A DNA stretch of 22,976 nucleotides, from the IMG/VR virus record IMGVR_UViG_2563366959_000008; one strand, written 5' to 3'. Below, in pieces: positions 1,973 through 2,307 of the stretch. Origin of the DNA: a virus. Taxonomy: Duplodnaviria; Heunggongvirae; Uroviricota; Caudoviricetes. Every line of letters starts with the position of its first letter. The stretch's first letter is position 1. The notes under the pieces were generated by a model. It was given only the letters and a program-made list of their open reading frames with translations. It had not been told where the DNA came from and searched no databases. The position numbers and the translations under genes are program-made.

Positions 1973-2063
1973 CAGAATATTTTCCTGAAAAATGACGTTG
2001 GCCAACGCGGGTGGATAACACGAAATCCTGAAAACTGGTAAAACCTAAGTGAATAAAAGTAAA

Positions 2064-2101
2064 AACCCCGTTTGTTGGCAGCAAGCGGGGTTTTGTGTTT
2101 T
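2064..2101 (+). terminator. Intrinsic terminator-like hairpin between R and Rz
   Basis: Stem aaccccgtttg/caagcggggtt (11 bp, one G-U), 7-nt loop, followed by ttgtgtttt. Confidence 0.5.
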
Positions 2102-2193
2102 CTGACCTTGAGTAAGGCAAGGGAGAAATTATGGGTAGGGAGGTACTTTCCCTGTGAGGAAGTATAAAAGATTCTTTCTGAGGTTGTCCATTA

Positions 2194-2301
2194 TGAAAGG
2201 CATTGAAGTGGAGACGCCAGCCAGTCTGGATTTAACAAGAGCGGCAGCTTTTGCCATTCGTATTGTGGCCATTGCTGTTCTGGTCTGGGCAATCCGTTGG
2301 T
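2194..2301 (+). CDS. Small single-pass membrane peptide (35 aa), hypothetical
   Basis: ATG at 2194 with GAGG 10 nt upstream; MKGIEVETPASLDLTRAAAFAIRIVAIAVLVWAIRWW has a charged N-terminus and an 18-residue hydrophobic helix; it ends 7 nt before the Rz start. Too short for the ORF track. Confidence 0.3.
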
Positions 2302-2307
2302 GGTGAT

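Follow-up and report, generated by a model that had tools for sequence, protein, structure and literature searches.

A small membrane-peptide gene behind a conserved terminator in the variable gap between endolysin R and spanin Rz of a lambdoid prophage

The gap between R and Rz

In the lambdoid lysis cassette of the phage record IMGVR_UViG_2563366959_000008 (IMG/VR, Caudoviricetes), whose whole stretch of 22,976 nt is referred to here as the window, a total of 335 nt separate the endolysin gene R from the spanin gene Rz. This gap holds an intrinsic terminator followed by a small gene which, judging from sequence comparison, is truly protein-coding and under strong purifying selection, and whose product is probably an accessory membrane factor of lysis. 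In the explanation favoured here, to which a probability of about 0.6 is given, polymerase modified by Q would read through the terminator, the small gene would be co-transcribed with the other lysis genes and coupled to Rz, and its product would serve as an accessory lysis peptide. The gene was already catalogued as hypothetical and would be kin to known kinds of element, namely accessory membrane proteins of lysis cassettes and terminators of Q-controlled operons. What appears new is the firm evidence of coding, a wider family of peptides ending in [R/K]WW with a possible dual start, and the view of the gap as a site of variable cargo marked by a conserved hairpin. The features of the gap, all on the + strand, are the following:

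1973..2061, +, conserved R-distal leader, left border of the slot, present in all 30 gap classes
2062..2101, +, intrinsic terminator, made of a hairpin (2062-2094) and a U-rich tract to 2101 (scan, folding and variant comparison)
2154..2306, +, possible long form of the peptide, GTG start, 50 aa, MRKYKRFFLRLSI plus the short form; GGGAGG Shine-Dalgarno at 2138-2143
2157..2192, +, conserved 36 nt just 5′ of the ATG at 2193, with GAGG at 2180-2183; presumed initiation region of the short form (cross-lineage comparison)
2193..2306, +, small membrane-peptide gene, 37 aa plus stop, MKGIEVETPASLDLTRAAAFAIRIVAIAVLVWAIRWW (WP_000675931.1 / ECs_1094, substitution pattern, C-terminal helix)
2299..2307, +, ribosome-binding site of Rz, GGTGGTGAT; overlapped by the 3′ end of the peptide gene, final codons and stop included (conserved junction)

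Coding status and annotation of the small gene

The peptide gene runs from an ATG at 2193-2195 to a TGA at 2304-2306 and has 37 codons. A preliminary description of this DNA had placed an open reading frame (ORF) of 35 codons at 2194-2301, ending 7 nt before Rz; the ORF is real, but it spans 2193-2306 and ends 1 nt before Rz, and the peptide written out in that description already had 37 residues. Moreover, it can no longer be called unannotated, as it corresponds to the RefSeq hypothetical protein WP_000675931.1 and to ECs_1094 of Escherichia coli O157:H7 Sakai, whose prophage Sp4 carries a lysis segment 99.5% identical to window positions 223-3718. The same gene received a passing mention in a 2012 paper, and a literature search on ECs1094, WP_000675931 and NP_309121 turned up no paper. 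It also matches the PHROG family phrog_4493 (function not assigned), with E = 5.5e-16 over profile positions 14-54 for the 37-aa form and E = 1.4e-24 over positions 1-54 of 56 for the 50-aa form.

The IMG/VR copies alone contained too few substitutions for an estimate of the ratio of non-synonymous to synonymous substitution (dN/dS), which became decisive after the addition of divergent copies. Among seven variants, dN/dS was 0.15 in the annotated frame, with proportions of synonymous and non-synonymous differences of 0.46 (pS) and 0.069 (pN), while the other two frames of the same alignment gave 0.95 and 2.42. In particular, the copy at locus L135 differed from that of the window at 24 of 111 positions, 18.5 of the differences being synonymous and 5.5 non-synonymous, and all the replacements were exchanges among V, I, L and M. 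Replacements in the helix were always hydrophobic-for-hydrophobic among the variants.

One C-terminal transmembrane (TM) helix is predicted for the peptide, as the preliminary description had proposed. AlphaFold2, run on the family alignment, placed a helix at residues 22-49 of the 50-aa form, with a predicted local distance difference test (pLDDT) score of ~95 at residues 31-50, and the Kyte-Doolittle hydropathy profile (11 residues) peaked at 3.1 in the C-terminal half. The peptide ends in RWW.

Short and long forms of the peptide

The 37-aa form appears to be the common denominator of the compared lineages, and the 50-aa form may also be made in the window. The long form is favoured by the end-to-end coverage of the phrog_4493 profile, by the layout TAGGGAG-N9-11-GTG, which is retained in L135, and by distant members with an ATG start, which keep a basic N-terminal extension. 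Against it, and against the reading put forward here as regards the start codon, a stop codon breaks the extension in L138, and L132 has GAG instead of GTG.

The 36 nt at 2157-2192 showed 3 differences out of 36 against both L135 and L132, compared with 17-19 out of 37 at third codon positions of the ORF. The sequence UUG-AGG/AGA before the internal Met is retained in L140 and L141, and all the lineages examined have AGG or AGA as the Arg codon 4-6 codons ahead of this Met, which places GAGG or GAGA 9-14 nt before the ATG and thus fits internal initiation.

As a separate observation, relative to phages carrying a 60-aa relative, the window has an insertion of ~25 nt after the terminator (2131-2157, +), from which a mini-ORF of 8 codons arises (MGREVLSL), preceded by an AGGGAG Shine-Dalgarno of its own. 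The TGA of this mini-ORF overlaps the GTG at 2154 (GTGA), and this overlap might serve to couple the long form to it.

The terminator between R and Rz

The terminator scan found a hairpin at 2062-2094 with 15 pairs, two of them G-U, of the form AAAACCCCGTTTGTT-GGC-AGCAAGCGGGGTTTT followed by GTGTTTTCTG, the stem-loop being directly trailed by the U-rich UUUUGUGUUUUC. This is the object previously described as a terminator at 2064-2101 with an 11-bp stem; its reality stands, while the limits and the number of pairs are revised. The + strand fold of 2050-2110 reached −21.8 kcal/mol (z = −3.5 against shuffles), and terminator-like sites were enriched in positions 1-4500, with 14 found against 3.6 ± 2.0 in shuffles; another of them lies at 463-489, upstream of the holin gene S.

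Of 26 sequence variants, 25 had the more stable hairpin on the + strand, with means of −18.5 and −13.6 kcal/mol on the + and minus strands, respectively. Furthermore, its substitutions were either retained as G-U pairs, which would be C-A mismatches on the minus strand, or compensated, and the structure appears to be selected on the sense strand. The z-scores did not separate the strands (−3.4 for + and −3.7 for minus, both driven by the hairpin), and the + strand 5′ untranslated region on its own was unremarkable (z = 0.41).

Related phages keep the terminator at the same position, and phages with other cargo have non-homologous hairpins in the same place, one of which (GGCACCGTAATGGTGCC plus UUUGUCAUUU) has a U-rich tail on the + strand only. 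Hairpins were also found directly 5′ of members of the peptide family in unrelated contexts: in L135 immediately after an endolysin gene of the M15-peptidase type, in L140 immediately after the capsid gene (−29.9 kcal/mol) and in L141 after another small TM ORF. It was also observed that TTCTGA or TTCTGG follows each of these hairpins within a few bases (window 2095-2105, L135 1411-1416, L140 1965-1970 and L141 1626-1631), a recurrence that may be due to chance; the hairpins are themselves unrelated in sequence.

Probable transcription across the gap and proposed role of the peptide

The short motif TGGTGGTGATATG, which forms the right-hand border of the gap, is retained before Rz whatever lies upstream, even a methylase gene in another frame. 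The ribosome-binding site of Rz agrees at 8 of 9 positions with the extended Shine-Dalgarno GGAGGUGAU, the complement of the 3′ end of 16S rRNA. Since translation of the peptide ends 1 nt ahead of the Rz start codon, within this ribosome-binding site, the anatomy points to coupling of the two genes, not to uncoupling. Moreover, Q is known to make the late and lysis-gene transcription of lambdoid phages resistant to terminators (PMC7547250; established knowledge), so in the lytic cycle Rz should stay linked to R despite the terminator. The suggestion that spanin expression is uncoupled from R is therefore poorly supported.

The favoured explanation would work as follows. In the lysogen, unmodified polymerase coming from upstream promoters would be stopped at the terminator, while in the lytic cycle Q-modified polymerase would pass the hairpin and place S, R, the peptide gene and Rz/Rz1 on one transcript, and the peptide and the spanins would thereby be restricted to the lytic cycle. 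Ribosomes ending the peptide, whose stop is seen to lie inside the Rz signal, would probably help to start Rz. The peptide would most likely insert into the inner membrane and act there as a non-essential accessory lysis factor, for timing or release, a role suggested by association. The earlier proposal of a lysis modulator is thus a reasonable guess, given the adjacency to endolysin genes in three cassette types, while its alternative of a product like a type I toxin gained little support, because no + strand promoter and no near-threshold Rfam match were found and the gene is packed head-to-tail with Rz in the late operon.

Several points weigh against this explanation, in addition to those on the start codon. 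The lysis role is read from gene neighbourhood, and the distant member in L141 is surrounded by head-tail and tail-fibre-like genes, none of its neighbours being a recognised lysis gene. Copies of the peptide gene are broken by frameshifts in gap classes 290-293 and by a stop codon in Stx2_14040, and other lambdoid cassettes are wholly without it; with so many copies broken or absent, any role of the peptide is dispensable. Finally, models of holins, releasins and spanins did not match the family. For the peptides, neither Pfam nor NCBIfam yielded a hit that reached the curated cut-offs (all Pfam hits were sub-threshold, at 13-14 bits against cut-offs of 25-27), and PADLOC and PDB sequence searches were empty.

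The gap as a cargo slot

The 335-nt spacer is, on comparative evidence, one filling of a variable cargo slot in lambdoid prophages resembling Shiga toxin (Stx) phages. An 18-mer of the leader (2013-2030, fixed by the search pattern) was scanned over IMG/VR and gave 120 loci, in which the distance from the pattern to Rz fell into 30 classes, from 256 to 1859 nt. Nucleotide diversity in the leader was 0.044 (1973-1994) and 0.127 (2031-2061), compared with 0.208 at third codon positions of R. The leader corresponds to the 75-89 bp ‘highly conserved’ spacer between lysozyme and LT-II genes, and LT-II toxin operons occupy the same R-Rz slot in other phages (PMC3252337). Between one and four small ORFs, tightly packed and each with a single helix, filled the slot; they belong to several families, and some phages have an Ant-like gene or DNA methylases there as well.

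In the Qin prophage of E. coli K-12, the two homologues, rrrQ for the endolysin and rzpQ for Rz, overlap and leave no gap. Together with the variable slot, the window thus has the extra DNA between genes adjacent in relatives that is expected of a moron; the other moron hallmarks, a promoter of its own and a downstream terminator, were not found, the terminator lying upstream and none being present between the ORF and Rz. The comparison with related lysis cassettes that had been proposed at the outset supported a coding and conserved ORF, but it also showed the gene to be optional and the content of the slot variable.

The peptide family

Members of the peptide family matched PHROG families 4493, 1115 and 3246. 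The family is narrow: a set of 5.8 billion proteins yielded 62 clusters and one of 1.84 billion yielded 25 representatives, and E. coli was named as the source for nearly all of them. Distant members retain the C-terminal [R/K]WW, an AFAI[R/K] motif where the helix begins and the start M-K-x-G-[IL]-E, and the longer distant forms carry a basic Y-K-R-x-x-L-R-L extension ahead of that Met. The [R/K]WW end is kept in L135 and L140, where no Rz follows, which indicates a property of the peptide and not a mere by-product of the Rz ribosome-binding site.

Members adjoin endolysin genes in three unrelated types of lysis cassette. That of the window has a holin of the phage 21 type and an endolysin of the lysozyme family followed by the peptide. 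In L135, holin_8 and holin_3_7 genes accompany an M15-peptidase endolysin, with the peptide gene after it and then a gene for a 60-aa lipoprotein. The third, in L140, belongs to a G+C-rich phage and has five small TM ORFs, the last of which ends 3 nt before a signal-arrest-release (SAR) lysozyme gene.

Two of these loci hold further details. The 60-aa ORF of L135 (1616-1798) has the lipobox LLVGC, starts 1 nt after the peptide gene at the same TGGTGGTGATATG junction and matches phrog_7528 (function not assigned); it may be the outer-membrane lipoprotein of a spanin pair. The array of L140 (contig Ga0102740_1000771, 1924-3185) consists of the capsid gene, a strong hairpin and five tandem one-helix ORFs, located where a holin is expected, and two of these ORFs, one ending in ALAFFLRALAVGILIYTVRWW and the other MNGTLPAWRFLLLWLIGVMLAATPFIHAVRWW, resemble E. 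coli families.

Comparison with known systems

The peptide was compared with other small membrane proteins of lysis. Lcc6 of the Shewanella prophage LambdaSo (bioRxiv 10.1101/2024.01.23.576932) is likewise a very small one-helix membrane protein (65 aa), acting as an extra factor beyond holin, endolysin and spanin in a lambda-like phage with a pinholin and a SAR endolysin. In contrast, lysis strictly depends on it and its gene belongs to another cluster, while the window peptide is optional and encoded between R and Rz; the two are compared here by their descriptions. Phage Mu gp25, or ‘releasin’ (DUF2730; PMC9239132), is also a single-helix protein encoded a few genes from a SAR endolysin, which it aids. 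However, releasin has an N-terminal TM domain and a cytoplasmic domain, whereas the helix of the window peptide is C-terminal with almost no soluble domain, and the peptide had no Pfam match to DUF2730.

The dual starts of the holin genes of lambda (S105/S107) and phage 21 (S68/S71) offer another parallel, in that two in-frame starts would give a shorter form and a longer one bearing extra N-terminal positive charge, from a gene placed, like those holin/antiholin genes, in the lysis cassette. A holin-like location beside an endolysin gene was found in the window, L135 and L140, and the internal Met, the basic extension and GAGG are kept in distant members, the long form being interrupted in L138 and startless in L132. 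Opposite to these holins, whose extensions have 2-3 residues, that of the window has 13 residues and a net charge of +5; the phage 21 pinholin has two TM regions against one predicted helix, and the holin families of Pfam, NCBIfam and PHROG did not include the peptide, although the neighbouring S has matches among them.

It could be proposed that the [R/K]WW peptides are a so far unrecognised class of regulators of lysis cassettes with a holin-like dual start, gated by an upstream hairpin or terminator and ranging from Stx-like phages of E. coli to G+C-rich environmental phages. Under this proposal, the long form would have a strongly basic N-terminus, the short form would start at the conserved internal Met after the conserved GAGG, and the five-ORF array of L140 would replace the holin directly before the SAR endolysin. 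Such a generalization is tentative and, on balance, rather unlikely.

As for the terminator, tR′ and the terminators flanking morons (PMC7547250, PMC3252337) are likewise strong terminators in the late unit, with expected override by Q, and sites of gene insertion. That of the window differs in lying between two lysis genes and upstream, not downstream, of the cargo.

Alternative explanations

The peptide could instead belong to a lysogen-expressed moron unrelated to lysis, changing the host membrane and leading, for example, to superinfection exclusion or a fitness effect. The slot elsewhere carries classic morons (LT-II toxin, Ant-like gene and methylases), the gene is optional and mobile between unrelated cassettes, and L141 shows no recognised lysis-gene neighbour. 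However, the stretch from the terminator to the ORF showed no promoter, an upstream terminator would shield the gene from lysogenic transcription, PADLOC gave no match, and the gene consistently adjoins endolysin or spanin genes in the three cassette types, so that this possibility is considered unlikely. Still less probable is the view that the hairpin mainly forms the 3′ end of a short stable RNA from the 3′ region of R (1973-2101), like StxS at tR′. The leader varies less than third positions of R, a terminator with a U-tail would suit Hfq binding, and the late regions of prophages are rich in such small RNAs (sRNAs). Nevertheless, no promoter-like site was found in or before the leader and no Rfam family matched; leader conservation could equally reflect a role as recombination border. 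Moreover, the spacer was not among 63 Hfq-bound candidates of Sakai, in a screen that excluded sense peaks within 100 bp of coding regions. An sRNA ending at the terminator is possible alongside the Q read-through explanation, with which it is compatible and not exclusive.

A type I toxin-antitoxin-like module of the hok/mok/sok type, with the peptide as membrane toxin, was also weighed and found improbable. It would involve a cis-antisense RNA running from a minus-strand promoter to the hairpin, which would act as a minus-strand terminator (~2056), and blocking the initiation region of the long form; the candidate promoter is:

2161..2190, −, promoter-like site TGGACA-18 nt-TATACT (10/12), of doubtful function, overlapping the conserved initiation region

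Like hok/mok/sok and shoB/ohsC, the window combines a small hydrophobic peptide with what may be an overlapping frame upstream and an antisense promoter. The 10/12 site (2190-2161, −) is retained in the divergent L132 and L135, the 36 nt holding it are far more conserved than the synonymous sites of the ORF, and the hairpin has a U-rich tail on the minus strand also. Yet those 36 nt double as the initiation region of the short form, and promoter-like sites, sought with a crude sigma-70 consensus scan, were no commoner than in shuffles (5 against 7.5 expected). Unlike in those systems, the gene had no sense promoter of its own in that scan (+ strand, 2101-2193), and it is operonic with Rz, peptide genes lying in sense-oriented tandem arrays joined to it. 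In addition, 25 of 26 variants have a less stable hairpin on the minus strand, the body of the putative antisense RNA, taken without the hairpin, folded no better than shuffles (z = −0.97), and the H-19B-type peptide has no comparable minus-strand site in that position. For the 99.5%-identical Sp4 of Sakai, the published table of Hfq-CRAC (crosslinking and analysis of cDNA) listed no Hfq-bound sRNA in this spacer, a weak negative, as the screen had discarded sense peaks up to 100 bp from a gene. Rfam offered no match near any family threshold either: at gathering thresholds, the only match in the whole window was an IS3-type ALIL pseudoknot, and permissive E-values over 1700-2600 gave only sub-threshold, hairpin-driven hits (rimP leader, RefA9, OhsC and IS009), that of OhsC over the terminator scoring 20.2 bits against a gathering score of 50 and covering the hairpin only. 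Lastly, the ORF could be a functionless leftover whose translation only delivers ribosomes to the Rz start, as might be suggested by its stop, which falls within the Rz Shine-Dalgarno and 1 nt short of the Rz start codon, by the retention of that junction whatever is upstream and by several frameshifted copies. This is highly improbable, since a dN/dS of 0.15 with conservative replacements indicates that the amino-acid sequence itself is selected, and the family motifs are retained where no Rz follows (L135 and L140).

Spread and relevance

The spacer was matched at least in part by 2037 of 5426 complete E. coli genomes (~38%) and nearly whole in 674 (12%), and its first 156 nt, comprising leader and terminator, were found in 320 deposited phage records, mostly of Stx-converting phages. 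The burst of these phages and the release of toxin are both governed by the timing of lysis, and their pinholin/SAR-endolysin cassettes are regarded as four-gene systems (S, R, Rz and Rz1). Lcc6 and releasin illustrate that an additional lysis factor, whether essential or modulating, can be as small as a one-helix protein; if the peptides tune lysis or control the synthesis of spanins, they would offer an inexpensive target for explaining why strains differ in toxin release. The R-Rz slot also matters in itself, as the insertion site of the LT-II enterotoxin gene. Overall, this amounts to a modest lead, not a discovery, on a gene held in databases as ‘hypothetical’.

Lysis cassette and neighbouring regions

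Positions 1-3000 of the window form a lambdoid lysis cassette according to PHROG and Pfam matches, and the two genes flanking the spacer are R and Rz, as the preliminary description had said. The genes are:

545..751, +, phage-21-type class II holin/pinholin S (PF04971 Phage_holin_2_1, E = 1.3e-32; PHROG holin families)
1007-1321, −, hypothetical ORF of 104 aa between holin and endolysin (phrog_1853, function not assigned, E = 3.5e-47; ECs_1097 / WP_000138558.1)
1439..1972, +, endolysin R, phage lysozyme family (PF00959, E = 3.2e-24; phrog_7 endolysin)
2308..2775, +, Rz, i-spanin (PF03245, E = 8.4e-49; phrog_13 Rz-like spanin)
2528..2713, +, Rz1, o-spanin lipoprotein, inside Rz in the +1 frame (PF06085, E = 1.7e-21; Sakai ECs_1093)

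The counterpart of S in Sakai is ECs_1100, and the 104-aa ORF had no match in Pfam, NCBIfam or PADLOC searches. The homologue of R in H-19B carries the label ‘similar to bacteriophage 21 R protein’. The N-terminus of R, Gly/Ala-rich and weakly hydrophobic, looks like a SAR signal, a reading that also draws on Pinto et al. (PMC8136144). In Sakai, the lysis segment of Sp4 is inverted and lies between IS629 copies, beside pchA.

Directly after the spanin genes, a PerC-family regulator of 104 aa is encoded at 3241-3555 (+), preceded by a very T-rich stretch (~3060-3200); it is pchA in Sakai Sp4, within the 99.5%-identical stretch. An IS3-family element of the IS629/IS1203 type is inserted among the packaging and head genes (6797-8110), its ALIL frameshift pseudoknot lying at 7656-7772 (−).

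Known sRNAs were also considered for the spacer and set aside. AgvB, AsxR and Pas are placed by the respective papers between the post-PR′ moron site and the holin/lysozyme operon, and the Hfq-bound HnrS (EcOnc10-12) maps just downstream of Rz in Sp9, Sp10 and Sp12. BLAST against the Sp10 region gave no match to window 2776-3718, the stretch after Rz. A terminator-like hairpin, ACACGGAATTACCGTGT plus TTTTGCC, was observed downstream of Rz at 2980-3006 (−), and HnrS in Sakai Sp9/Sp10/Sp12 is encoded just after Rz on the same strand as this hairpin. Upstream of the holin (100-340), where no Rfam family matched, two related minus-strand hairpins with T-runs were found, at 120-106 and ~290-254, the latter with a tail to ~247. 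The Hfq-bound candidate EcOnc35 of Sakai Sp4 (1,186,583-1,186,656, +) converts by coordinates to window 264-337 (−), a placement that is approximate, as it stems from an older genome version.

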